DNA from: Deltaproteobacteria bacterium
Lineage (GTDB): Bacteria > Desulfobacterota > Desulfobacteria > Desulfobacterales > SpSt-501
Length of the DNA stretch: 64,000 bases
Reading direction: 5' to 3'
NCBI GenBank assembly: GCA_016219005.1
Contig: JACRCN010000033.1
Coordinates: 7,595 to 71,594, forward strand
Shown here: piece after piece, positions 4,340-58,565 of the stretch
How positions within the stretch are numbered: position 1 is the first letter of the stretch
How the letters are laid out: each line of letters begins with the position of its first letter
Translations under genes and position numbers: made by a program
The notes under the pieces: model-generated
What the model was told of the DNA's origin: nothing
The model's input: only the letters and a program-made list of their open reading frames with translations
Database searches by the model: none

Positions 4340-4900
4340 GTGAATGATTCGGTCATAACGCCGGTCGATGTGCCCGTATTCATCGGCGAGCGGGCGCAAA
4401 ACCTTTTTCGCAGCCGGCAGATGTACTGCTCGGAGGCGGTCTTGGTTGTGTTGAACAATGTGCTGGGCGGAGGGCTCACGGAAAACCAAGCTTCTGCCCT
4501 TGCGGCACCGTTTGCGGAAGGCGTCGGGAAAAACGGATGCCTTTGCGGGGCTCTGGCGGGGGCACTCTTGGCTGTGGGGCTCTTCCTCGGATCGTCCAAC
4601 CCTGTAGGGCGCCGAAAACCCGTTCAAGTTGCGTCGGGTATTTTGATGAAACGCTTCAAACTGCGATTCGGCGCCTCATGTTGCCGGATCCTATCCAGGA
4701 AAGATCAAGGCGATCCCGTTCCGGTTTTCGATCGGTGCGCGCAGCAGACCGCCGAAGCCGCCGCCATGGCCGCATCGCTGATCATGGAACATCGACCGGA
4801 AGTGAAACAGCATGCGGATATTGATTATTTAAATGCCCGCGATTCGGTAGTCAGCGGGTTTTTCAAGAATTCACTCCGGCGCACGGGTTGCCGGATCTAA
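4340..4900 (+). CDS. C_GCAxxG_C_C family putative redox-active protein
   Basis: Conserved pattern YCSEAV ... GCLCGALAGA ... FGASCCRIL, typical of the C_GCAxxG_C_C family. GTG start. Confidence 0.7.
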   Translation: MNDSVITPVDVPVFIGERAQNLFRSRQMYCSEAVLVVLNNVLGGGLTENQASALAAPFAEGVGKNGCLCGALAGALLAVGLFLGSSNPVGRRKPVQVASGILMKRFKLRFGASCCRILSRKDQGDPVPVFDRCAQQTAEAAAMAASLIMEHRPEVKQHADIDYLNARDSVVSGFFKNSLRRTGCRI

Positions 4901-5125
4901 CATCGGAAGAATGGCCCTTCATCTAATGTTGTTCACTGCTTCCATCAAAAGCCACAAGATGGCCATCGTTGATTTATACCCTGGCTTTACCTGAGTGAAT
5001 TGCCTGGACGCGATCCGGGTGAGCTTCGCGCAGGATCAGGCCGAGGTTCCCGCTTTCCTTCCCTGTTAATCACCACATCTCCAAATCACCTCTGCCTGAA
5101 TCCAAATCGGTCCCAACAGATATAA

Positions 5126-5217
5126 AGGGGCAATGGTGCTGGGCACCCCGCGGTCTTCAAAACCGTCGGCCTCGTCTTAACAACGTGGAGGAGGTTCGAT
5201 TCCCCTTGCCCCTTCCA
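5126..5217 (+). tRNA. selC: tRNA-Sec (anticodon UCA)
   Basis: Anticodon loop CUUCAAA on a GCGGU/ACCGU stem, with a long variable arm, a GGTTCGATTCC T-loop and encoded CCA. The acceptor arm AGGGGCAA pairs with TTGCCCCT (8 bp). It ends 23 nt before selB. The exact 5' end and the 8/5 versus 7/5 stem partition are uncertain. Confidence 0.8.
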
Positions 5218-5240
5218 AAAGGATTGGCCATCGGTTCGAT

Positions 5241-7163
5241 ATGGAAAGCCATTACACAATCGGTTTTGCCGGCCATGTCGATCACGGCAAAACGTCGCTG
5301 GTACGCTGTTTAACCGGTGTCGACACCGATCGAAAACCCGAGGAAAAACTGCGTGGAATGTCAATCGAAGCGGGTGTGGCACCCCTCAATCTGCCCTCCG
5401 GCAGGCAAGTCGCAGTAATCGATGTTCCCGGGCACACCGATTTTCTAAAAAACACCATCCGGGGACTCAACAGCGTCGATTTGGGTGTTCTGGTCGTTGC
5501 CGCCGATGACGGCGTCATGCCGCAAACGCGAGAGCATCTTGAGATACTCAAATTTTTCAAGGCGACATCCGGATTTGTCGTATTGAGCAAAACGGATCTG
5601 GTGGACCAAGATACGGTTGAGTTGGCAGAGCTCGAAGTGCGCGAACTGCTGAGTGGGACATTTCTTGATAATCGCCCCTTTTTCAAGTTCACCACAATGA
5701 ACCCGAAGCTTTCAACCGACATTATTCAGGGCATCGATGCCGCTCTCATCGAGCTTCCGACAAAGAAATCCGACCCACCTTTCAGGCTATGGATCGACCA
5801 AGTGCGAACGCTCGTCGGTCACGGCACCGTGGTGAGTGGCACCGTATCCTCCGGGTGCATCCAGTGCGATGACGTAATAGAGCTTTTGCCTTCCGGCAAC
5901 AAGATTCGTGCCCGATCATTGGAAACACACGGAGCCGCGATTTCCAAAGCCGTTGCAGGTCAGAGAGTCGGAATCAATCTCCACCGGGTTCCCATCAATG
6001 AAATTGCTCGAGGGATGGCACTCGTGACGCCTAGCGCGATCCCTCCTGTTAATATGCTGAATGCGGATATCCACGTTTTAGAAAAAGCCAAAAGGGGCCT
6101 CAAAAACCGCCAGAAAGTTAAAATCTACCTCGGCACATCCATAACCAATGCCATGATCATCCTGATGGGTGGGGACCGGCTTGATCCGGGAGAAACCGGT
6201 CTTGCCCAAATTCGGCTGATGAGGCCGGTTGCCGCTACGCCGCAGGAAGCATTCGTTGTTTCGCCGCTAAACATCAACACGGTGATCGCCGGCGGCCGAG
6301 TGCTGGAGGCGGCGCAAGAGAAATATCGAATATCAAAATCCGGTTCGCTCCTTCCGCTTTTGACAGCTCTCCGACTGGCGGATGTTGGCGCATACGTTGA
6401 AACAGTGTTCGCCCATTCCACGGGGTACCTGATCACCGCAAGGGATTTATCCATAAAAACAGGTCTGCCGCATTCTGAGTTCGAGTCGCTGATCAGTTCC
6501 AAGGTACAAAAAGGTGAATTTATCTACATCAAGGGTTACGGCGCCATAAAGAAGACCCATGTGGCCGCGATCAAAACCGGATTTCTGGCCGTTGTGGAGG
6601 AGACATTCAAGAAAGATCCTCTGAAAAAGACCATTCTAATTTCAGAAGCGGCAGAGCGCCTGGAAAATCGGGTTGCGATTGTTCTGCTGCAAATTGTTGC
6701 CGATGAGCTTTGCGCGGAGAACAAGCTGATTCGGCTCCATGGCGGTTACCACACTCCCCTTACCGAAAAATCACTTGATGCGCATCGTGAATCCCTGATT
6801 TCACAACTGCTGGAATATGCACAAAGCTCCGGAGTCACCCCCTTCAGCGCGGACACTTTCTGGAAACTGCACCGGCCGAAGTTCAAGAAAGAGGATATCC
6901 AGCAGTTGCTCAATTATCTTTTTTCACAAGACAAAATGGTGCGGTTGAACGATCAGCGGTTTTTATCCATTGAAGCCCTGGATGAAATCAAGAGGCGCGT
7001 AACACGGACCGCAACGTCAAAAGGGTTCATCACCGTCAACGACTGTAAGGAAGTGCTGGGCTATGGGAGATCGGGCGGCACCCATGTTTTGGATCACCTG
7101 GATAAAACCGGCTTCACCGTGCGGCGGGAAGACAAACACTACCTCATGAAGAGCCTCGCCTGA
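5241..7163 (+). CDS. selB: selenocysteine-specific translation elongation factor SelB
   Basis: 640 aa. GTPase motifs GHVDHGKTSL, DVPGH and SKTD, followed by a long C-terminal winged-helix region typical of SelB. Adjacent to tRNA-Sec. Confidence 0.9.
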   Translation: MESHYTIGFAGHVDHGKTSLVRCLTGVDTDRKPEEKLRGMSIEAGVAPLNLPSGRQVAVIDVPGHTDFLKNTIRGLNSVDLGVLVVAADDGVMPQTREHLEILKFFKATSGFVVLSKTDLVDQDTVELAELEVRELLSGTFLDNRPFFKFTTMNPKLSTDIIQGIDAALIELPTKKSDPPFRLWIDQVRTLVGHGTVVSGTVSSGCIQCDDVIELLPSGNKIRARSLETHGAAISKAVAGQRVGINLHRVPINEIARGMALVTPSAIPPVNMLNADIHVLEKAKRGLKNRQKVKIYLGTSITNAMIILMGGDRLDPGETGLAQIRLMRPVAATPQEAFVVSPLNINTVIAGGRVLEAAQEKYRISKSGSLLPLLTALRLADVGAYVETVFAHSTGYLITARDLSIKTGLPHSEFESLISSKVQKGEFIYIKGYGAIKKTHVAAIKTGFLAVVEETFKKDPLKKTILISEAAERLENRVAIVLLQIVADELCAENKLIRLHGGYHTPLTEKSLDAHRESLISQLLEYAQSSGVTPFSADTFWKLHRPKFKKEDIQQLLNYLFSQDKMVRLNDQRFLSIEALDEIKRRVTRTATSKGFITVNDCKEVLGYGRSGGTHVLDHLDKTGFTVRREDKHYLMKSLA

Positions 7164-8473
7164 TGGGCATTCACGTTTACAATACACTGACCCGGAAAGA
7201 GGAGCCGCTGGAACTCATCTCACCGGGAAAAGTAAGCATCTACGTTTGCGGCCCCACCGTCTACGACGATCCGCATCTGGGACACGCCCGCCCCGCCGTG
7301 GTGTTCGATGTGATAACCCGTTACCTCAAGGCGCAAGGGCATGCCGTTACGTATGTTCGCAACCTCACCGACATAGACGATAAAATCATCGAAAAAGCCC
7401 GCCAACAAAACCGGGATTTTAAGACATTGGGCGGGCACTACGCCAATCGATATCATGAAGCCATGCGGCGCTTGAATGTCGCCGCACCCGACGCTGAGCC
7501 CAAAGCCACTGACCACATCCTCCACATGCGAGATTTCATTTCGAAACTGATCCAACGCGATCATGCCTATCAGTCCCGCGGCAATGTTTACTTCGCGGTT
7601 GAATCTTTCAAAAATTACGGAAGGCTTTCACGCCGCACGGTCCCATCTATTTCCTCGAACTTCTCCGTGGAGCAGGGCAAACGGCACCCGGCCGATTTTG
7701 CCTTATGGAAAGAGGCCAAACCGGAAGAGCCTTCATGGGCGAGCCCCTGGGGGTCTGGACGTCCCGGTTGGCATATCGAATGTTCGGCCATGAGTTCACG
7801 CTTGCTGGGGGAGAACTACGACATCCACGGCGGCGGTGCCGATCTTGTCTTCCCGCATCATGAAAATGAAATCGCGCAGTCGGAGAGCCTTTTCGGGAAA
7901 ACTCCTGCCAATTATTGGATGCATAACGGCCTTGTCTACATCGCCGGCGAGAAGATGTCCAAGTCCCTTGGAAATGCCCTTAATCTTCATGGCCTCCTTG
8001 AAATCCACCGGCCGGAGGCACTGCGCCTGTTTCTGCTGACGAAGCATTATCGGCATCCGATGGAAGTGACCCATCCGGCCTTGCATGAAGCATCCGCCCG
8101 CCTGTCGAAACTTTACCGTTTCCTTTTTCGCAGCGCATGGTCAGACGCTGAATCAGGCGAGCTTGGAATCAACCGAGGCGCCTTATGGACCCGCTTCTGC
8201 AACGCCATGGGAAAAGACTTCAACTTCCCCATGGCCCTGTCCGTTCTCTTCGAGGGTATCCGGCAGGTAAATCTTGTCTCCGGAAACAGCCGGGATGCAG
8301 TGGGTGCCGATCCCGCCTGCCGCGCGATAAGCCTTGTATCGGATATATTCTTCATTTGCCGGGATGTTCTCGGAATTGCGCCGGAGCCATCCATGGATGC
8401 ATGGCCATATGAAACCGAGACAAAATTGAGTGATGGCAAACTGCAAACCGCTACTTTTAGGAGGGCATCATGA
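7163..8473 (+). CDS. cysS: cysteine--tRNA ligase
   Basis: Class I motifs HLGH (HIGH) and KMSKS, with Zn/Cys-site residues CGPTVYD, GWHIECS and FPHHENE. Its start overlaps the selB stop (TGATG). Confidence 0.9.
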   Translation: MGIHVYNTLTRKEEPLELISPGKVSIYVCGPTVYDDPHLGHARPAVVFDVITRYLKAQGHAVTYVRNLTDIDDKIIEKARQQNRDFKTLGGHYANRYHEAMRRLNVAAPDAEPKATDHILHMRDFISKLIQRDHAYQSRGNVYFAVESFKNYGRLSRRTVPSISSNFSVEQGKRHPADFALWKEAKPEEPSWASPWGSGRPGWHIECSAMSSRLLGENYDIHGGGADLVFPHHENEIAQSESLFGKTPANYWMHNGLVYIAGEKMSKSLGNALNLHGLLEIHRPEALRLFLLTKHYRHPMEVTHPALHEASARLSKLYRFLFRSAWSDAESGELGINRGALWTRFCNAMGKDFNFPMALSVLFEGIRQVNLVSGNSRDAVGADPACRAISLVSDIFFICRDVLGIAPEPSMDAWPYETETKLSDGKLQTATFRRAS

Positions 8474-48910: not shown

Positions 48911-49267
48911 GGGGGCGATACGGTTTCGACGGGGACAATGAAATTCAAGCTGCATACCGAGCGTCCTGTCGGCTCGTAAATCCTGATGGGGCTAAACATA
49001 ATCGCAGACGATTATGCGTACGCCGTAGCTGCCTAAGGCAGCTACCGTCCTGCCGGTTCTCCTCCTGCTGATCCGGTAAAGGGCGTCGACTCGCGGGATA
49101 GTTGATCCAGAGTGCCTGCGGCTGGATCGGCGAACGTCAGCGGGCTGGCCGATTGCGCATCCCGCTTGGAGGAGTCGCAAGAGGCGAGATTCAAACTCCA
49201 AGATAAGTATGTAGATGCTTGAGTGGAATGTTTTCGGACGCGGGTTCGACTCCCGCCGCCTCCACCA
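48911..49267 (+). ncRNA. ssrA: transfer-messenger RNA (tmRNA)
   Basis: The 5' GGGGGCGAUACGGUUUCGACGGGG pairs with the 3' ...GGACGCGGGUUCGACUCCCGCCGCCUCCACCA, including a G3-U wobble. The tag ORF GCA GAC GAT TAT GCG TAC GCC GTA GCT GCC TAA (49004..49036) encodes ADDYAYAVAA. Confidence 0.9.
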
Positions 49268-49270
49268 TTT

Positions 49271-49540
49271 TTATCCTGTTTTTTCAGACACTTGCGAATC
49301 AGCATCCTTTGACACTGGTAGAATACTGGTAGAATTCCAAGCATCTTCCAGCCGATTTCCATCGTCTGGCGCGGGCACGTGCCGGTAATAATGGTCCACG
49401 ATCATGCGTGTCGTGGTGTGCCCGACCTGCTTCTGGATGAAGCTCATGCGCTCATTCTGATCCAGCGCGTTGGTGATGTAGGACGGCCAGTCCGCCCTGA
49501 TGTTGTGTGCGCCCAGGCTGCGACACATTGCCTCCAGCAA
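49271..49540 (-). pseudogene. tyrosine recombinase/phage integrase relic (C-terminal catalytic part only)
   Basis: AHNIRADW...QKQVGHTTTRMIVDHYYRH matches the HxxR ... GH ... Y box II region. There is an in-frame stop 5 codons upstream and no N-terminal domains. It ends 4 nt from the tmRNA 3' end. Confidence 0.65.
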
Positions 49541-50155
49541 ATGAGGATAGAAGCGCTATCTCAATATGGACCTTCTCAAAGGTCAAGAGCTGGAAGAACA
49601 AATCGAGGCGGCCTCAGCTTGATACGCAATGGGCGCTGCCAAAAAGAAAGAACGAAAAATTCTTTACACTACCAATAAGCCTCGACGATCTGGCTTCGGC
49701 CGCTGTTGTGCCGGCAGATAATGAGCACATTCAGTTGGTCTGACATGAGGTCCTCTTAAAAAAAATACCGCCTGGATAGGCTTTTCCTACACAGCTCGGG
49801 ATGGATCGAAACAAAGATGGATCAGCATCGAAATCCTTTCCGAGAGGAAGGCTCATACATAAATCTAAAGCAGCTATCCGAAACTTGGTTTAAACCGCGC
49901 GGCACGATTCATGAGAATCTTCGATCCATCGCAAATATGCTGATGACGAAACATACTCCGATAATCAGGACTACCAGCCAGTCAGCCACAAAGACCTCCT
50001 CAGCCATGCGTGCCTCGTTTGGCTAAACTAAATTTTTCTATGACCTCGATAGCCCCAGCGAGTTAGGAGGAGGTTAGGAAACCATTAGTTGTTGATGAAG
50101 CCTTGAAAACATAAAGCGGAAAGATGGCGGGTGGAGCTTGATTGCAAAGGGAAGT

Positions 50156-50308
50156 GGTCCCCTCTCAGCTCGTTGGCGTCGGCGCCACCCGCAGGTTGAC
50201 CAGCATCAAGTGGGACGTCACCACCCGCATTCTCTTGGCATGGGTCGTCACGATTCCCTGTTCGGCCTTCATCGCTGTGCCGGCCTTCTTAGCCATTACT
50301 GCTATGTG
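50156..50308 (+). pseudogene. PiT-family phosphate transporter relic (C-terminal ~50 aa)
   Basis: VPSQLVGVGATRRLTSIKWDVTTRILLAWVVTIPCSAFIAVPAFL matches the conserved C-terminal PiT repeat. No upstream part of the gene is present. Confidence 0.5.
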
Positions 50309-50636
50309 ATAGCGCAAGCGATTGAGCTTTGCAGCTCAACCCACTGTTGGCCAACTTTTGGAAATCGACCCATGTTTGTTTTGCTCAAAATATTCCTGCA
50401 AGATTGGTTCCCCTCTGCCGGCAACCGAGAATCTGTATGCTCATCACAGGAAGATGGGAATCACACAGATTCCCATCTTTCATTTTGGGTCAAATTTTCA
50501 GGTGTTCTCTTTTCCCCCTCCTCCTGAAGGCCTTGGCTCGACCCAACATCTGGCTACTTTTGAAAATGTTCCTTGACATGGCTGCCGGTCTTGATAATAT
50601 TACCTACATAAATTTATAAGTGTAGGTTGTTATATC

Positions 50637-51263
50637 ATGAAGCTCCTATCAACAAACACCCAAGATTCCCGGTTCGACAGGGCGGCTGCAGTCTTCAAAA
50701 AGCACAGCGGCATCCTGCACACGGCACAGGCGCTTCGTGCAGGAATCCACCCCAGCACGATCTACGCTATGCGCAACTCTGGAGCGCTGGAGGTGGTAAG
50801 CCGCGGCGTGTACCGTCTTGCCGACAGCCCCCCTCTGGGCAACCCGGACCTGGTGACCGTCGCGACCCGCGTTCCAAGCGGGGTGATTTGCCTGATTTCT
50901 GCGCTGGCCTTTCACAAGCTCACCACCCAGATACCTCACGAGGTGCACGTGGCCCTGCCGCGCGGCGCGGAGGAGCCACGTGTGGCTCACCCACCGATCA
51001 AGACCTACAGGTTCACCGGGGATGCGTTTACGGAGGGAGTGAAGACGCATGAACTTGACGGTATCGGCGTGCGCATCTACAGCCCGGAGAAGACGCTCTC
51101 CGACTGCTTCAAGTTTCGAAATAAAATCGGCCTCGATACAGCGGTAGAGGCAGTTCGCTTTTACCGTGAACGCAAACGCGTCAAGGTGGACGACCTAATG
51201 CGATACGCATCGATCTGCCGGGTTGAAAAGATCATCCGCCCATACCTGGAGGCGCTTCTGTAA
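50637..51263 (+). CDS. type IV toxin-antitoxin system AbiEi family antitoxin
   Basis: N-terminal wHTH pattern LHTAQALRAGIHPSTIYAMRNSGALEVVSRGVYRL and a C-terminal AbiEi domain. Its stop overlaps the toxin start (TAATG). Confidence 0.8.
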   Translation: MKLLSTNTQDSRFDRAAAVFKKHSGILHTAQALRAGIHPSTIYAMRNSGALEVVSRGVYRLADSPPLGNPDLVTVATRVPSGVICLISALAFHKLTTQIPHEVHVALPRGAEEPRVAHPPIKTYRFTGDAFTEGVKTHELDGIGVRIYSPEKTLSDCFKFRNKIGLDTAVEAVRFYRERKRVKVDDLMRYASICRVEKIIRPYLEALL

Positions 51264-52174
51264 TGGCAAGGAATATCAAGAACTCTGCCGCCTCGGTTCA
51301 TCAACGCCTTCTCAACAAGGCCAAGGAGGCATCCCGCCCCTTCAACGAATTTTTGCAGCACTTCGCCAACGAGCGGTTTATCTACCGGCTCTCCAAAAGC
51401 CCCCACGCAGACAGGTTCATCCTCAAGGGGGCCTTGATGCTCGCAGCGTGGAGCGCACCAGCATCACGCCCCACAATGGACATCGATCTGCTCGGAAGAA
51501 TCGACAACAGCCTCGAAGTGATCGTCTCAGCAGTGAAGGACGCCTGCCGGATGGATGTCGAGGCGGATGGCACATCCTACCACGCGGAAACGGTGACTGC
51601 CGCGCGGATCACGGAAGATGCCGAATACCAAGGCATACGCGTCCATGTCCAAGGCAGCCTGGGCAACGCCCGCGTCCCCCTGCAGATTGACATCGGATTC
51701 GGGGATGTGATCGTGCCGTGTCCCAGCAGGGTCGCCTATCCTGTTCTACTCGACTTTTCACGCCCCGAGTTGGACGGCTACAGCATGGAGAGCACCATCG
51801 CCGAGAAGTTCCAGACCATGGTAAGGCTTGGCGTTCTGAACAGCCGGATGAAGGATTTCCACGACATTTGGATGCTGAGCCGAACGTTTGATTTCAGGGG
51901 CGAACTATTGGCCGAGGCGGTCAAGAAGACTTTCGAGAACCGAAACACGCTGGTCTCCGTTGACTCTGCGGTCTTCAATCCTTCTTTTGTGAAGGATGGG
52001 AACAAGAAGGTTCAGTGGCAGGGGTTTATCAAGAAAGCCAAGCTGACCGATGCGCCAGAGGACTTCGAGGATGTGGTCGCGGTCGTCAAGCTGTTCCTCG
52101 CGCCTGTCGCAGTTTCCTTTTTTAAGCGAGGGGTGTTCCGTAGCATTTGGAACGCTCCTGGACCGTGGCGATGA
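51263..52174 (+). CDS. nucleotidyltransferase AbiEii/AbiGii toxin family protein
   Basis: DUF1814-type motifs FILKGALMLAAW...RPTMDIDLLG and DIGFGD, 303 aa. Confidence 0.85.
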   Translation: MARNIKNSAASVHQRLLNKAKEASRPFNEFLQHFANERFIYRLSKSPHADRFILKGALMLAAWSAPASRPTMDIDLLGRIDNSLEVIVSAVKDACRMDVEADGTSYHAETVTAARITEDAEYQGIRVHVQGSLGNARVPLQIDIGFGDVIVPCPSRVAYPVLLDFSRPELDGYSMESTIAEKFQTMVRLGVLNSRMKDFHDIWMLSRTFDFRGELLAEAVKKTFENRNTLVSVDSAVFNPSFVKDGNKKVQWQGFIKKAKLTDAPEDFEDVVAVVKLFLAPVAVSFFKRGVFRSIWNAPGPWR

Positions 52175-52223
52175 TTGATGCCTTCAATAAAAACTGTGCC
52201 TCATTTCAATGATGCCTGTCAAC

Positions 52224-54626
52224 TTATCGGTCATTCCACGACCGGATCTGGTACCCCATTGCCCTGTACCCTCGCTGGCGCTTCTCCCACATCCGGGTAA
52301 GCTGTGGGTGGTCAAGTTCAACGTAATCGTAGATGCGTACGTCCCGCTTGTCTGCATGCTCCCGGTGCAGGCGGCCTGCATACTGCTGCAGGGTTCCTTT
52401 CCAGGAAATCGGCATGCCCAGCACCAGCGTATCAAGGGGCGGATGGTCAAAGCCCTCGCCGATCAGGCGGCCGGTGGCCAACAGCACCCGTGGGGCAAAA
52501 TCATCCAGTTCGGCAAGCTCTGAAAGGGTAGCCATGCGCTGCTTTTTCGACAGCCGCCCGTGCAGAATAAAACAGCGCATGACTTCATCCCCAAGGGCAT
52601 TACGCAGCAGGTCCAGGTGCTCGGTCCGTTCAGTCAGAACCAAGACTTTTCGGCCCTCCTGATATGCGGCCAGAATATCTTGCGCGACGCGCCGGGTGCG
52701 GTTGGTGTCGTTGGCGAGCATGCGAAACACATCCTGGATGCCAGACTCCGGGGGGATATTCGGTGTGGGTAAGCTTTGCGGCCACACCTCCAGCTGGGCG
52801 GGAGCACTTTCAGGTCGTGAGGCGCTGTGTTGGATCGGACCGCACTGCATAAAAATAATCGGCTGATGCCCATCTCGTCGGATCGGCGTGGCAGTCAGGC
52901 CGATTACGTACTTTGCCTTGGCTTGTTTGAGAATCGCCTCAAAGGAAAAAGCCGAAAGATGATGGCATTCGTCAACAATAATCTGGCCGTACTCATCGAG
53001 CAATTCCGGTAAATCATCGATCCTTGACAGCGACTGCATGACTGCGATGTCGATCTTTCCAGTCGGGTTCTTCTTGCCAGCGCCGAAAACACCCAGAGTA
53101 CCCTTGGATAGTTTAAGAAAGGTCGTCAGCTGCTCCTGCCATTGCCGGAGCAGTTCAGTGCGGTGCACCAGGATCAGGGTGCTCAACTTGCGCCGAGCAA
53201 TCAACGCAGCAGCAGTGACCGTTTTGCCGAAGGCTGTCGGGGCGCATAGGATTCCCACCTCCTGCTTCAGCATCACCCTGACGGCCGTCTTCTGATCTTT
53301 TCTAAGCTCGCCAGTGAATTTGACCGGGACCCTACACCCCGCGACCCGCTCGTCCTGAATCTCTGCCCGGATGTCATTGTGTTCCAGCAGCTCCAGCAAC
53401 GCATCCATGCATCCCCGGGGTAGGCCAATGTATTGGGGAAAATTCTCGGCGCAGCCGATGATGCGCGGTTTGTTCCAGACCGGCAGACGCATGGCCTGGG
53501 CCTTGTAGAATTCCGGGTTTTGAAAAGCAGCCAGGCGGATCAAGCGGTTTGCCAGCGGCTGGGACAGATCAGCTTTAGCGATGAAAATCTGATTGGCCCG
53601 CACCAGTGTCAGAGATTCCGGCAGTGGGCCGGATATCCGGCTGGAGGCTTGCGCTGGCTGTTTCCATGGCTCCCGTCCTTCCTCTTCCGAGACAAAGGCC
53701 ACATCGAGCAGATGTCTGCCGCCTGTGGTCCGCAGAATGGCTCTCTCCAACTCAAACCGAGGCATGGGCCTGATCGACGTCAGAAAGCCCCACTGGTCCG
53801 GATAGGGAACGAAGGCTTCATCGACAAATAGGCTGCGCCCTTGCTCGCGGGGCTGCTTCTGCAAAGGAAGTGCGATCAGATTGCCGAATCCACCCTTGGG
53901 CAAAGTGTCCTGGTTGGGAAAAAACCGGTCGTAGCTGGACAGGGAGAGCTGCCGGGTGCGGTCACAGGTGTGACTGATCAGGGCCGCGCCGAGCTGCCGC
54001 GCCTCGCGGGCCGGGATCGGGTCGGTAAAAAATATCCAGACATGCGCACCCTTTCCGGAGCGTGATATTTCCAGTACTGCAGGGATGCTAAGTTCCCGGC
54101 ACGAATCCATGAAGGCCCGGGCATCCTCGCGCCAGTCGTCTTCGTCGAAGTCCGCTGCAAGAAAAAAACAGGTGTCGTCGGCAAGGAGCGGATAGACGCC
54201 CACCGTGTGTTGACCGACCAGATGGTCGTAAATCACCTGATCGGTGACCGGCAACAACAAGCGCTGGTCGCAGTCGCCGCACTTGCCCCTTGGCTTATAA
54301 CAGATGCCGGGCCGCCACTCGTTGCCGCAGGCGGGCGAATAGCCCGACTTGCCCTTGGCTGACTCCCAGCGCAGCGGGTACGCATCGCTGCGACCACGAA
54401 ACAGACGACGGAAGAGTGCGACTTTTTCCGCAGGTTCCAAAAGTCGGTGCTGCTTTTCGCACGGATAGCGTGCGGTGGTTTCGTGAAGAATAGTTGCGGT
54501 ATCCTCCGGCTCCCAGGGGATGCCATGCTTTTCTAGCAGGGTCACCAGGCGGGCGATTTCAGCCCGCAGGCGCTCGCACTCCTCGCAGGACCAGGACTTG
54601 CCGTCAGCAGCAGCGTCACTTTTCAT
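52224..54626 (-). CDS. archaeo-eukaryotic primase (PrimPol)-like domain fused to SF2 DEAD/DEAH-box helicase (conflict-system type)
   Basis: The N-terminal half carries RGRSDAYPLRWESAKGKSGYSPACGNEW...C..C...FLAADFDEDDW...SRSGKGAHVWIFF (AEP-like). The C-terminal half has helicase motifs APTAFGKTV (I), VDECHH (II), TATP (III) and QYAGRLHR (VI). Confidence 0.8.
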   Translation of the reverse strand: MKSDAAADGKSWSCEECERLRAEIARLVTLLEKHGIPWEPEDTATILHETTARYPCEKQHRLLEPAEKVALFRRLFRGRSDAYPLRWESAKGKSGYSPACGNEWRPGICYKPRGKCGDCDQRLLLPVTDQVIYDHLVGQHTVGVYPLLADDTCFFLAADFDEDDWREDARAFMDSCRELSIPAVLEISRSGKGAHVWIFFTDPIPAREARQLGAALISHTCDRTRQLSLSSYDRFFPNQDTLPKGGFGNLIALPLQKQPREQGRSLFVDEAFVPYPDQWGFLTSIRPMPRFELERAILRTTGGRHLLDVAFVSEEEGREPWKQPAQASSRISGPLPESLTLVRANQIFIAKADLSQPLANRLIRLAAFQNPEFYKAQAMRLPVWNKPRIIGCAENFPQYIGLPRGCMDALLELLEHNDIRAEIQDERVAGCRVPVKFTGELRKDQKTAVRVMLKQEVGILCAPTAFGKTVTAAALIARRKLSTLILVHRTELLRQWQEQLTTFLKLSKGTLGVFGAGKKNPTGKIDIAVMQSLSRIDDLPELLDEYGQIIVDECHHLSAFSFEAILKQAKAKYVIGLTATPIRRDGHQPIIFMQCGPIQHSASRPESAPAQLEVWPQSLPTPNIPPESGIQDVFRMLANDTNRTRRVAQDILAAYQEGRKVLVLTERTEHLDLLRNALGDEVMRCFILHGRLSKKQRMATLSELAELDDFAPRVLLATGRLIGEGFDHPPLDTLVLGMPISWKGTLQQYAGRLHREHADKRDVRIYDYVELDHPQLTRMWEKRQRGYRAMGYQIRSWNDR

Positions 54627-54702
54627 GCCAGATTCCAGCTTTCACGAGCCGTTGCACAAGCGCTTTGCGCCGATGTCCAGGCTTAGGGGAACAGGCCTGT
54701 TT

Positions 54703-55053
54703 TTATGCGTTTAGTCTTTCGAACAGTTCAAGACTATTAGCGGCAGCGATTGCCTCGCCCCGATAAGCCGCTCGGGTTACGGCCGACTGGCTGATTCCAA
54801 GTAATATGGACTTTACCGCGCTCCACCCGCCCAGGCTGCGAATCAATCCGCCGCCGATCAGCTCCGGCCGTCTTCCCAGGGCAATTCCCCGTTCAACGAA
54901 ATGCCGATACTGCCGCCGCGCCTTGGAGACCGACTTCCCAAAAAGACGCAGCACCGCATCGTTCGGCTGCCATTCGTGTGGTAAACCATAAACCGCATCG
55001 GGCCTTGGTTGGTCAGCGTGGAGATCAACCCAATGCTTTCTTTGCGGGCACAA
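54703..55053 (-). pseudogene. Y1 (IS200-like/HUH) transposase-like protein relic, C-terminal part
   Basis: EWQPNDAVLRLFGKSVSKARRQYRHFVERGIALGRRPELIGGGLIRSLGGWSAVK then LGISQSAVTRAAYRGEAIA. This matches the C-terminal half and the DnaA-C-like HTH of a ~300-aa transposase-like family common in deltaproteobacteria, with an internal deletion. Confidence 0.5.
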
Positions 55054-55328
55054 AACCGTATCGCCGAAGTCTGTCCCATCGGAGCGTAGCTGCGACCGTA
55101 TTGGTAGCGCAGTGCTGCTGCGCCTCAGGTTTCAGTTTGCGTGCATCAGCTATTTCCATGCACGCCTCTCTATCACAGCTTAACTATGTCTGCCATATTT
55201 ATTGCCGCGGTAATAATATGCCGAAGACCTTAACCATTATCGCTCCGGCAATAAAATATGCCAATTTTCAGAGGGTTGAGGGCAGGCAACTCCGTGAGCC
55301 TGCGCGCGGTGAAGAATTGGCGGATTCA

Positions 55329-57128
55329 TTAAGCTCTGGCGTAATAACTGATTAGAGCAGTCATTCCTAAGGCGTGAAAAAGTATAGCAGGGAAAACGCT
55401 TTGCGCTCTTTCTCTGACAAAACCGGTGGATAGTCCGAGCACAAATGCCGCACACAGGCACTCAGCAGTTGCGCGGGCCTGAAAACCATTCTGGAGATAG
55501 TCCGGATAAAGCAGAATGTAAACCATGAATAAAGAATATAACGTGGCAGCAGCGACAGATGGAAACGAAAAAAACCAACGGCTGTTGTGGCTTTGAATGT
55601 TATTGGGGTTCACTAAAATTCCGTGAGTTAAACTGCGGAACAAGAGCTCTGAAGCTAAAGGAACAGCCATAATAAGATAAATTGCGCCTTCACGAGTGGG
55701 AAGCAATTTCATCCCCTTGTATGGGAAATAAACTCCGATTCCCATCACGAAAAAAAATACAAATGGCAATAAGATCCACCAGCTTTTGCCCACAGGAGCT
55801 GCAAATCCAAACTGCCAGGGCCTTCTATGGGCAAAAACGCTCAGGCACAATGTGGTAAAGAAAATCAATGTAGCAAAAAATATGAAATCAGTCATCGTGA
55901 AAAGATCACGTGCAGTTGTGCCGCTGAGCCGGGATCGTGAAATGAGATACGATGCGCAAAGAGTTGAAATTCCAATTATGGCACTTGTTAGGACCAGGCT
56001 GCGAATGAAAGGGATTACCTTGCTGCCAAGGCCGGGTTTCTGAAAAGCATCACGACACGCTTTTGCGATTTGCAGCGGCGCTAATTTGGTGCCGCCGCCT
56101 TCACGAGGGGAGCCGCCTATGTCAGCCGAACCGCCCCACTTATTGCCATCCGCACGACCTCTCACCGCCGGGTCGACGAAATTCAGAATATTATACACAG
56201 CATTCAAGTCCCCTGGCATGAAAGGGTCCCAGCTGCGTAATGTATAAGCTCCTTCTTCTTTCTTGAGCACTACCAACCCAAGGCTTTCACCATACAACCT
56301 GTCCAGATAGGGCTCTAACTCGTAGATACCTAACTGGGTCTCAACTACAACAGCGATTCGGTTATTGCCGAGCTCAATACGAGCCAGTTCTTTCACATCT
56401 TTTACGTCATCTAATTCCTCTGACTTGTAAATGATTCGGTCCACCTTATGCAATATCAGAGCGGTATGCTCCAGAAAGTCAGTTTCCTTCCAAAGTCCCT
56501 TGCTTTTTAAATCAACCTCATCCGCCCTTAAGTAATCTATCATTTTTTTTGTATTCATAAGAGGCTTGGGCTGGAAACCGCTTAAAGCAGTCATCTCCAG
56601 TCCGTGCGAATCGATTATGCCTTCCAGCCGGACCAGTGCACATAAACGATTCAGCCCACCAAATTCCTTTTGCTGTATCCTCACGTGATTCAAAATCAGC
56701 CAAATTGCAAGAATTGTGTCCAAATCAGGTTCGTTTGCAATGACTCTCCAGTCCCGGCCGCGTAGATCCATGCGCTTTAGAATCATCACTAAGACCTGTT
56801 CGCAGGTCGAGAGCGTGAACGGCCGCATGCACTTTTCATGGTGGTCGAAATTATAGATTTGTTTTTCGAGGTCCATAAAGGGTTCAGACTGTGCCACACC
56901 GTCGAGATATATCGTGCAGGGAGGCGATTTTCGCACGGCTGAGGATGAGACCGTCAAACCCGCCTCAACTTGAACCTCAATATTCGGGGCTTCAAGGCAA
57001 ATCAGGATTCTCTTGTTATCACGATCCTTTATTGTGTAGCGTTCGGGCTGGCTTCGAATAGAAGATAAACTCAACTTGGGTTCATCTTCGGATGAGCTAT
57101 TGCCCCCTGAATATTTCATATTGTTCAA
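55329..57128 (-). CDS. membrane protein: N-terminal DHH/DHHA1-like phosphoesterase-like domain fused to C-terminal CPBP (CAAX protease-like) multi-TM domain
   Basis: 599-aa ORF in an AT-rich segment. It has NFDHHE (DHH-like motif) and a GGSADIGGSPREGGG (GGGH-like) region, then about 7 TM helices with CPBP motifs SELLFRS...H and FPAILFHALGM. An alternative ATG start lies at 57119. Confidence 0.65.
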   Translation of the reverse strand: MNNMKYSGGNSSSEDEPKLSLSSIRSQPERYTIKDRDNKRILICLEAPNIEVQVEAGLTVSSSAVRKSPPCTIYLDGVAQSEPFMDLEKQIYNFDHHEKCMRPFTLSTCEQVLVMILKRMDLRGRDWRVIANEPDLDTILAIWLILNHVRIQQKEFGGLNRLCALVRLEGIIDSHGLEMTALSGFQPKPLMNTKKMIDYLRADEVDLKSKGLWKETDFLEHTALILHKVDRIIYKSEELDDVKDVKELARIELGNNRIAVVVETQLGIYELEPYLDRLYGESLGLVVLKKEEGAYTLRSWDPFMPGDLNAVYNILNFVDPAVRGRADGNKWGGSADIGGSPREGGGTKLAPLQIAKACRDAFQKPGLGSKVIPFIRSLVLTSAIIGISTLCASYLISRSRLSGTTARDLFTMTDFIFFATLIFFTTLCLSVFAHRRPWQFGFAAPVGKSWWILLPFVFFFVMGIGVYFPYKGMKLLPTREGAIYLIMAVPLASELLFRSLTHGILVNPNNIQSHNSRWFFSFPSVAAATLYSLFMVYILLYPDYLQNGFQARATAECLCAAFVLGLSTGFVRERAQSVFPAILFHALGMTALISYYARA

Positions 57129-57684: not shown

Positions 57685-58011
57685 TTAACTGCGGTTCGCA
57701 ACCATTTCATAGCCTGCGCTATTCCAGGCCTCGACACCACCATCCAGGATTTCCACGTTGGTATATCCTATCATCATGTATTTAATTGCCTGACCGGCAG
57801 AAGTCACCTGGCCGGGTCAGGTACAATAAAAGATGATCTCCTGTCCCTTTTTAAGCTCTGATAATCTATCTTGAAACTCTGTGCGCGTGATCGCGCCCGG
57901 CAACCACATTTTGCTGCATGTCTCTTCATCCGGATAAGCACAGACCAAAATTGCACCTCCGTCCTTGGTCCGGCGATTAACCTCTTCTGGTGAAATGCGT
58001 ATAGGTTCCAT
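57685..58011 (-). CDS. single-domain rhodanese-like selenoprotein (Sec at codon 65)
   Basis: The ORF track stops at TGA 57817..57819. Read-through gives ...GQEIIFYCT-U-PGQVTSAGQAIKYMMIGYTNVEILDGGVEAWNSAGYEMVANRS. This completes a rhodanese domain, with the TGA placed in the active-site loop. GGAG lies 8 nt before the ATG. Confidence 0.7.
57789..57821 (-). promoter_or_regulatory. putative SECIS hairpin of the rhodanese selenoprotein
   Basis: mRNA CCUGACC(C)GGC(C)AG-GUGACUU-CUGCCGGUCAGG. It has a 12-bp stem with two bulged C, the UGA in the lower stem, and a GU-containing 7-nt loop. Confidence 0.5.
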
Positions 58012-58565
58012 TTTAGCGACTCCGTTTGAGTGTTGCGGATTCTAATTCGAACGAAACGATATATTAAGGATAAGATTAAAACTCGGAGAATGAAGTGGTC
58101 CTGTTCAATCAATCCAACCACCCGATATTGTGACCAAATGGCACCTCTTATTAATGGTTGCCGGCTCACATTCACGACTGCGTTGGGCTTGCATTACCCG
58201 CTCGCCAAAAGAAAGCAAACTCACAACTCCTTGGCGCGAATATTTCGGAAAGCCACAACTCCGGTGCGAGATTGCAGTCCGATGAAGCTCGGAACGCCAG
58301 GCGCGCTACCCAATCCGGCACCGTAATGAATTACCATTAACAATAAAGCATGCAATAGGCCGTGATGGCCGTTTATTTGGCAGCCCTGTTTTTGTGGAGT
58401 GGTCGATAACCCTTATGCTCCCAGGGTTTCGATGCTTTGCCGTTAAGACGGCGAACGGGTCGTCCGGATTTGCAGCGAGCGGGGCAGACCGCACAATTGT
58501 TTTCATGGACGAAGTGGTTATCATTTGTTCGTACCAATGCAACCTTCCGATAGGAAAGATGAAAG

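Follow-up and report, generated by a model that had tools for sequence, protein, structure and literature searches.

A predicted CxU rhodanese selenoprotein gene and its candidate recoding hairpin in a Desulfobacterales contig

The rhodanese gene and its in-frame UGA

The stretch of DNA analysed here, referred to as the window, comprises 64,000 nucleotides of contig JACRCN010000033.1 from a Deltaproteobacteria bacterium (positions 7,595 to 71,594). It comes from a groundwater metagenome, whose only RNA sequencing run has 7% of words in common with it, and it carries on its minus strand a small gene for a single-domain rhodanese. The coding sequence is crossed by an in-frame UGA codon, which we predict to be read as selenocysteine (Sec). 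The gene extends from an ATG at 58011 to a TAA at 57685 and consists of 108 codons plus the stop, with the TGA at codon 65 (57819..57817). ORF finding with translation table 11 returns a 64-aa open reading frame (ORF) on the minus strand (58011..57817) that is closed by this TGA. Read-through past the TGA adds 43 more residues, among them GYTNVEILDGGVEAWNSAGY, and the full read-through protein, MEPIRISPEEVNRRTKDGGAILVCAYPDEETCSKMWLPGAITRTEFQDRLSELKKGQEIIFYCT-U-PGQVTSAGQAIKYMMIGYTNVEILDGGVEAWNSAGYEMVANRS, has 108 residues and the active-site motif FYC-T-U-PGQ. The initial annotation of this DNA had already described the 64-aa ORF, its end in the rhodanese loop and the 43-residue extension, and its coordinates and strings are exact. 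The Pfam Rhodanese domain (PF00581) spans the TGA, matching residues 36-98 with 34.2 bits (cut-off 22.2).

A Shine-Dalgarno sequence, GGAG, lies 8 nt upstream of the ATG (58020..58023, minus strand) and is invariant in 10 aligned upstream regions. About 125 nt 5' of the start codon (window 58012-58136, minus strand) are conserved at the DNA level in the closest relatives (L001, L002 and L019-L021), with the conserved stretches TGGATTGATTGAACA and TTTTAAA...CTTATT...TTAA. Rfam has no match to this upstream region (58012-58136), which may function as a promoter/operator or be transcribed as a leader RNA.

Among 5.8 billion proteins searched, 31 close relatives of the window protein were found. 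Of these, 25 (the window's own product among them) end at the same TGA after 63-64 aa, and five (P0001-P0005) are about 107-122 aa long and show a Trp ('W') at the Sec site. P0002 is the sole W entry with DNA examined (L001:270-593); its 'W' codon is TGA, which would be read as Trp if the gene had been called with genetic code 4 (Mycoplasma-type). The loci of the 64-aa entry P0008 also stay in frame past the TGA. Scanning one-genome-per-species contigs and JGI metagenomes yielded 94 further loci, which together with four fetched loci and the window itself make 99, all of them carrying the QEIIFY motif. The named hosts are Syntrophales metagenome-assembled genomes (MAGs), five Geomonas species, Desulfobacula and one Acetomicrobium MAG, and the gene is also found in many metagenomes. 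TGA occupies the codon-65 position in every one of the 99 loci; 95 of them read TG[C/T]-NNN-TGA and the other 4 read TGA-NNN-TGA.

If the UGA were a true stop, the locus would be a pseudogene or would encode a 64-aa N-terminal fragment, as about 25 database entries are annotated, and the 64-aa fragment by itself indeed has no family match. However, 36-43 more codons are open past the TGA in all 99 loci, and the 83 distinct sequences among them combine strong amino-acid conservation with free synonymous change. Past the UGA, Gly+17, Gly+26/+27, Trp+31 and Gly+35 are conserved at nearly 100%, while the third codon positions of the conserved downstream residues vary freely, with a majority base of only 0.30-0.63. 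This combination indicates purifying selection on a translated protein rather than a pseudogene tail. In addition, the fragment would be without two helices and one strand of the fold, and a constrained hairpin follows the UGA (both described below). We regard the true-stop explanation as effectively refuted.

The five W entries, and the circumstance that Sec is called here from sequence only, would be compatible with read-through by a residue other than Sec, be it Trp or Gly under an alternative code, near-cognate decoding or insertion of Cys. Against this, the one W entry with examined DNA has TGA at the site, and homologs align a Cys (or Ser) with it and in no case a genuine Trp. TGA also serves as an ordinary stop in the window, where it ends the genes for SelB, cysteinyl-tRNA synthetase (CysRS), AbiEii and a serine hydroxymethyltransferase (SHMT)-like protein, and closes 29 of 56 long ORFs. 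The family occurs in cultured Geomonas species as well, and these use the standard genetic code. Moreover, the window encodes the means of Sec decoding, as had been pointed out in the initial annotation: a tRNA-Sec with anticodon UCA (5126..5217, plus strand; found by ARAGORN and matching Rfam RF01852 with 55.5 bits) and, directly 3' of it, the Sec-specific elongation factor SelB (5241..7163, plus strand; Pfam GTP_EFTU, Beta-barrel_SelB and SelB-wing_3). Neither SelA nor SelD was seen in the scanned ORFs of the window. Read-through as a residue other than Sec is, in our assessment, highly improbable. Taken together, the conserved TGA, the open and conserved frame behind it, the Cys in homologs, the presence of tRNA-Sec and SelB, and the use of TGA as a stop elsewhere in the window confirm the prediction of a selenoprotein gene.

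Active-site loop and related rhodanese families

Distant homologs provide the Cys counterpart of the predicted Sec. A hidden Markov model search of 1.84 billion cluster representatives gave 1706 relatives, and the active-site motif was tabulated in the best 150 of these together with the 31 close relatives. The position of Cys63 is occupied by Cys in nearly all of the tabulated domains. The residue two positions further on (+2) is Cys in 36 domains among the matches listed, Ser in 51, and Gly, Thr or Ala in 47; it is 'W', taken as TGA, in 11 domains plus 3 with W-x-W, and it is absent in 59, where the entry ends. Over 101 residues, the C-x-C homolog P0048 (FYCTCPEE) shares 45% identity with the window protein (E = 5e-31), and its DNA (L099) has TGT at the Sec position. 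More generally, distant Cys-type homologs carry TGT or TGC at the codon aligned to the UGA. The Sec/Cys pair proposed in the initial annotation is therefore found upon alignment with Cys-type homologs, as is rhodanese similarity downstream of the UGA.

As a guide to the fold, we used an AlphaFold model of the homolog P0002, which is 75% identical and has W at the Sec site. The model (mean pLDDT 83.9, pTM 0.80) adopts a rhodanese fold and matches BH2092 (3nhv; TM 0.80), GlpE (1gmx; 0.75), YgaP and other single-domain rhodaneses, with scores in the range 0.73-0.80. Past the Sec position it comprises a helix (69-80), a strand (86-89) and a second helix (92-99). Judged by this model, the 64-aa fragment is predicted to be unable to form a rhodanese domain.

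The TGT codon of Cys63 (57823..57825, minus strand) aligns with the active-site Cys of solved rhodaneses. In the comparison with 6mxv (FYC--GGGFRSA against FYCTUPGQVTSA in the window), the loop of the window protein is two residues longer. The alignment thus places Cys63 of FYC at the canonical catalytic position and Sec65 two residues on, in an enlarged loop, which makes up a CxU motif. Hence the initial annotation correctly located the TGA in the active-site loop, but the catalytic position itself belongs to Cys63 and not to the Sec. The family-wide form of the motif is FYC[A/T/S/G/N]U, with FYCTU in the window. GlpE (1gmx), BH2092 (3nhv) and YgaP share with the window family the fold and a catalytic Cys that follows the same central strand, whereas their loop reads C-x-x-G-x-R-S instead of the longer C-T-U-P-G-Q-V-T-S. 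Compared with them, the window protein has a second chalcogen at +2, lacks the loop Arg and has VCAY in place of VDxR.

The Cys of this VCAY motif, Cys24 (codon 57940..57942, minus strand), stands where other rhodaneses have the V-D-x-R strand. It is invariant in the Sec-type sequences (83/83) and is retained in most C-x-C and C-x-S homologs, and it may be a third redox-active residue close to the active site.

In the same 83 sequences, the Cys63 position is Cys in 95% and TGA (Sec) in the remainder, which yields a UxU form. Four loci have this arrangement (L007:6184-6192, L008:6184-6192, L009:3921-3929 and L013:6184-6192), reading TGA-GCC/GGG-TGA, so that the catalytic Cys would also be Sec; their hosts are Syntrophales and a 'delta proteobacterium' MAG. 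One downstream hairpin would have to serve two UGAs 6 nt apart in these loci.

CxU rhodanese selenoproteins and their UxU variant were predicted in 2005-2007 and are treated as a predicted selenoprotein family (reviews PMC9312934, PMC13188914), and a UxU rhodanese-related sulfurtransferase was reported in 2007 from the delta-symbionts of Olavius algarvensis (PMC1976440). The window gene is thus a further CxU rhodanese of a selenoprotein kind already predicted in the literature. The four UxU loci resemble the Olavius form in having two TGAs at the same two positions, whereas the window gene itself is CxU; the likeness is one of motif.

Among NCBIfam models, the best match of the window protein is NF041203 (rhodanese_LYCAU), with E values of 6e-13 to 5e-15. 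The two have in common a single rhodanese domain, a hydrophobic-Y-C-x-U motif with Sec two residues past the catalytic Cys, and the same kinds of anaerobe hosts. However, NF041203 aligns with the C-terminal half of the window protein only (profile positions 55-123). This equivalog model has a whole-protein cut-off of 115 bits, whereas the window protein attains 48.5 bits when the Sec residue is entered as X and 55.3 bits when it is entered as C. Scores of 53-63 bits are obtained for three C-x-C homologs and seven other members of the family, and LYCTU-type proteins with the usual VDSR strand score 88-94 bits. The LYC(A/T)U-type proteins (e.g., P0110) keep V-D-x-R, whereas the window family has the invariant VCAY Cys and is shorter, at about 105 aa compared with 126 for NF041203. 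The score below the cut-off and the VCAY Cys together argue for a sister subfamily rather than a member of NF041203 by that model's criterion. This VCAY/FYCxU subfamily stays below the cut-off of every curated NCBIfam model.

A candidate SECIS and a competing helix

Two hairpins can be drawn at the UGA. The shorter one, a candidate selenocysteine insertion sequence (SECIS), lies downstream of it and has a 4-bp stem, UGCC/GGCA (57799..57796 with 57790..57787, minus strand), and a 5-nt loop, GGUCA (57795..57791). The stem begins 16 nt and the loop 21 nt past the UGA, and the segment 57787..57799 is the probable SelB-binding core. The longer hairpin (57821..57789, minus strand), which had been singled out in the initial annotation, comprises 12 bp with two 1-nt bulges, a GUGACUU loop and the UGA in its lower stem; its sequence is CCUGACC(C)GGC(C)AG[GUGACUU]CUGCCGGUCAGG. 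The short hairpin supplies its 5' arm, its loop and two bases of its 3' stem to the 3' arm of the long one, so that the two structures are mutually exclusive.

We compared them in a gapless alignment of 77 distinct sequences that covers positions -12 to +59 around the UGA. Nucleotide constraint beyond the protein level is limited to codons +6 to +10, where the majority third base reaches 0.90, 0.92, 0.94, 0.98 and 0.77, as against 0.3-0.6 elsewhere. Codon choice at the hairpin site deviates accordingly from the background in the same genes: Gly is encoded by GGT in 75/77 cases (25% background), Ala by GCC in 68/75 (32%) and by GCT in 42/48 (14%), Ser by TCT in 33/35 (12%), and Arg by CGG in 18/18 (20%). 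The consensus, C-U-G-C-C [G-G-U-C-R] G-G-C-A-G, describes a 5-bp stem, extended to up to 7 bp, around a 5-nt loop, and most relatives form 5-7 bp. Pairing is possible in 87.9% of the alignment cells, compared with 22-51% when the partner is slid by 1-3 columns. Covariation is present at two pairs of synonymous sites, namely columns 33 and 45 (UA 58, UG 10, CG 5, GU 1) and columns 36 and 42, which form CG in 70 sequences, UG in 3 and UA in 1. Loop columns 37-40 are at least 90% conserved, and RNAalifold, run unguided on the 77 sequences, predicts the short hairpin as the only structure. The most distant family members retain a hairpin at this position but with a changed sequence: it reads CUGCCGC[AGGU]GCGGCAG in one Desulfobacula MAG, CUGCUGC[AGGU]GCAGCAG in another, and UCUGCC[CGUGU]GGCGGA in Acetomicrobium.

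The bacterial SECIS model (bSECISearch criteria) describes a loop of 3-9 nt, an upper stem of 4-16 bp, a G in the first two loop positions (usually G[G/U]), a distance of 16-37 nt from the UGA to the apical loop, and a minimum free energy of -7.5 kcal/mol or lower (PMC13188914). The short hairpin agrees with this model in loop size, stem length, loop G and spacing. Several observations nevertheless speak against its role as the SECIS. In the window it has only 4 bp and, at -5.9 kcal/mol, misses the energy threshold, and it is far weaker than the competing long hairpin; in four relatives, it reaches -8.1 to -14.6 kcal/mol. The Fisher p-values for the codon bias are inflated by the phylogenetic relatedness of the sequences. 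Codons for S-A-G-Q-A also underlie the hairpin, and to some extent they favour a GCC...GGC palindrome. Finally, in the Cys-type control, which comprises the DNA of six homolog loci only, one locus with TGC (L103:360-638) retains the identical hairpin, UCUGCCGGUCAGGCAGA, and two others (L100 and L105) fold other hairpins at the same place. The hairpins in Cys-type homologs may be fossil SECIS elements left after Sec-to-Cys conversion, or may reflect a S-A-G-x-A peptide that favours the palindrome, and part of the hairpin signal could accordingly be ancestral or protein-driven.

The frame of the L103 locus seems to break soon after the hairpin, and this copy may be decaying or may have changed from Sec to Cys only recently. 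No Rfam family matches the hairpin region, either at gathering scores or at E values up to 10. Weighing both sides, we predict from the pattern of sequence conservation that the short GGUCA hairpin is probably the SelB site.

The initial annotation had instead assigned the SECIS role to the long hairpin. This structure does exist, and no other local fold in the window comes close to it in stability: its RNAfold energy is -21.9 kcal/mol within 66 nt of context (z = -3.2, with 1/200 shuffles as stable) and -19.0 kcal/mol within 53 nt, so that its energy (-19 to -22 kcal/mol) passes the SECIS model. Its loop starts with G-U, its lower helix, CCUGACC/GGUCAGG, can form in 77-95% of the 77 sequences, and the merely 4-bp short hairpin of the closest clade leaves room for a clade-specific replacement. 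The loop and most of the upper stem, however, lack conservation. Only 27-48% of the sequences can form the upper pairs 19-36, 20-35, 21-34 and 24-32, and the pair 23-33, which forms in 92%, has its 3' base in the conserved short hairpin. Synonymous constraint is absent from loop codons +4 and +5, and the nearest relatives have GCAACUU, GCGACUU or GCCACCU in place of GUGACUU. The loop begins 9 nt past the UGA, outside the 16-37 nt range; the 5' arm would be inside the ribosome with the UGA in the A site; and the structure is absent from the RNAalifold prediction. Even the complementarity of the lower helix mostly arises because the codons for Ala(GCC)-Sec(UGA)-Pro(CCN) face those for Gly(GGU)-Gln(CAG)-Ala(GCN), together with the conserved GGUCA loop. 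It is therefore quite unlikely that the 12-bp hairpin with the GUGACUU loop is itself a functional, fdhF-like SECIS.

The proposed fdhF-type layout does not hold for the window in other respects either. In the E. coli fdhF SECIS, the stem starts 11 nt from the UGA, contains a bulged U17 and presents G23/U24 in the loop (PMC8659212). The window has in common with it a hairpin within the coding sequence just past the UGA, a G-U in the apical loop and a UGA region that pairs downstream. In contrast to fdhF, the stem in the window starts at 16 nt, the loop GU is located at nt 26-27 counted from the U of the UGA (3 nt further), and a bulged U17 is missing. Furthermore, the helix that contains the UGA is not stacked beneath the SelB hairpin but competes with it, and its formation excludes the hairpin that presents the loop.

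The lower helix merits attention as an alternative fold. The GGUCA loop can pair with the recoded codon and the bases on either side of it (CC-UGA-CC), and in about 80% of the family members the SelB-binding hairpin sequence and the UGA can be locked in the alternative helix. The sole free site of the lower helix, the third base of codon -1, is a pyrimidine in 74/77 sequences. Ala codons at this position end in C or T in 63/64 cases, compared with a 46% background, and the Cys-type homologs have a purine there in 3/6. This pyrimidine bias fits selection for pairing in the UGA helix; its cause could be base pairing to G42, or else an influence of codon context on recoding.

In our reading, the long hairpin would be a clade-specific alternative fold that is opened by the ribosome arriving at the UGA. 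As long as no ribosome is present, the mRNA of this clade would keep the short-hairpin sequence inside the stabler long hairpin, together with the UGA. By the time the UGA occupies the A site, the ribosome must have melted the 5' arm of the long hairpin, and, given the known ribosome footprint, this arm would then lie in the mRNA channel. The 3' arm, released from its partner, would be able to fold into the short hairpin at the entrance for the mRNA. There, SelB with Sec-tRNA(Sec) would bind the short hairpin, UGCC[GGUCA]GGCA, whose G-G-U loop lies 21 nt past the UGA. A stronger proposal is that the alternative helix works as a ribosome-opened switch that exposes the SelB site only at the UGA and that, separately, Cys24, Cys63 and Sec65 constitute a three-chalcogen relay; we consider this rather unlikely.

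Predicted function and genomic surroundings

With Cys63 at the catalytic position, the protein would carry sulfane sulfur as a persulfide on this residue, as other rhodaneses do. Sec65 would act as a second redox-active chalcogen that resolves the persulfide or accepts its sulfur via a Cys-S-Se-Sec (or S-S-Se) intermediate. The protein might then be a fast sulfurtransferase or a persulfide-reducing redox module, rather than a plain thiosulfate:cyanide transferase. In the wider family, the +2 position varies between U, C, S, G and T and Cys63 is near invariant, and the UxU forms show Sec to be tolerated at either position. Together with the exchange of U, C and S at +2, these forms would fit an accessory redox role of the +2 position, not a primary catalytic one. 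Two points count against this assignment of function: the catalytic roles of Cys63 and Sec65 are deduced from their position only, and the gene neighbours in the seven longer loci include no conserved partner, being GNAT, GH15, beta-lactamase-like, aldo-keto reductase, Mo-hydroxylase and thiolase genes. All in all, we consider it very likely that a 108-residue CxU single-domain rhodanese selenoprotein, with recoding directed by the short hairpin and sulfur chemistry at Cys63/Sec65, explains the locus as a whole.

A C-x-C homolog (L101:3001-3669) adjoins, in convergent orientation, the gene for the sulfur carrier TusA; this is the sole functional hint from genomic context.

The same selenoprotein could alternatively be a perselenide carrier that delivers selenium to SelD, a role at which the initial annotation had hinted. 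Rhodaneses can bind selenium in vitro, and the genome uses Sec. The gene, however, lies about 50 kb from the tRNA-Sec and SelB genes, and linkage to sel genes was not seen in the loci examined; the neighbours are unrelated metabolic genes, and the carrier gene found next to the one C-x-C homolog, TusA, is for sulfur. Selenium delivery is thus possible, but the context gives it no support and we judge it unlikely.

The rhodanese gene and some small unknown ORFs lie downstream of the transfer-messenger RNA gene (tmRNA, ssrA; 48911-49267), and metabolic genes follow from 59615. The DNA next to ssrA (window 49300-57128) has a lower GC content and contains a defence-type gene set. It encodes an AbiEi/AbiEii toxin-antitoxin pair (50637-52174), a TOTE-type archaeo-eukaryotic primase fused to a helicase (52224-54626, minus strand) and a 599-aa protein with a CPBP/Rce1-like membrane protease C-terminus (55329-57128, minus strand). 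The initial annotation had placed the rhodanese gene at the edge of an ssrA island. The GC content does drop: it is about 0.59-0.65 on the upstream side of ssrA and 0.46-0.50 in the region of about 55-59.5 kb. However, a direct repeat of the tmRNA 3' end, of the kind expected at an attachment site, was not found in the window even when up to 3 mismatches were allowed, and no integrase-sized ORF was seen next to ssrA. A location at the island's edge is therefore plausible, with the GC drop as its only support. At the other end of the window (4340-8473), genes for a C_GCAxxG_C_C redox protein, tRNA-Sec, SelB and CysRS are arranged head to tail, those of SelB and CysRS overlapping by 1 base.

CxU and UxU rhodaneses recur in anaerobic bacteria that cycle sulfur and metals (Syntrophales, Geomonas and Desulfobacula). 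The VCAY/FYCxU alignment, combined with the hairpin consensus (C)UGCC-GGUCR-GGCA(G), could be used to correct the mis-annotated database entries of this family. Our understanding of Sec decoding is unchanged, unless the idea of the alternative helix proves real. As far as sequence can tell, the value of the finding would lie mainly in the repair of a widespread mis-annotation and in the proposed enzyme design, in which a selenol placed beside a persulfide-carrying Cys would offer a testable arrangement for fast turnover of sulfane sulfur and persulfides.

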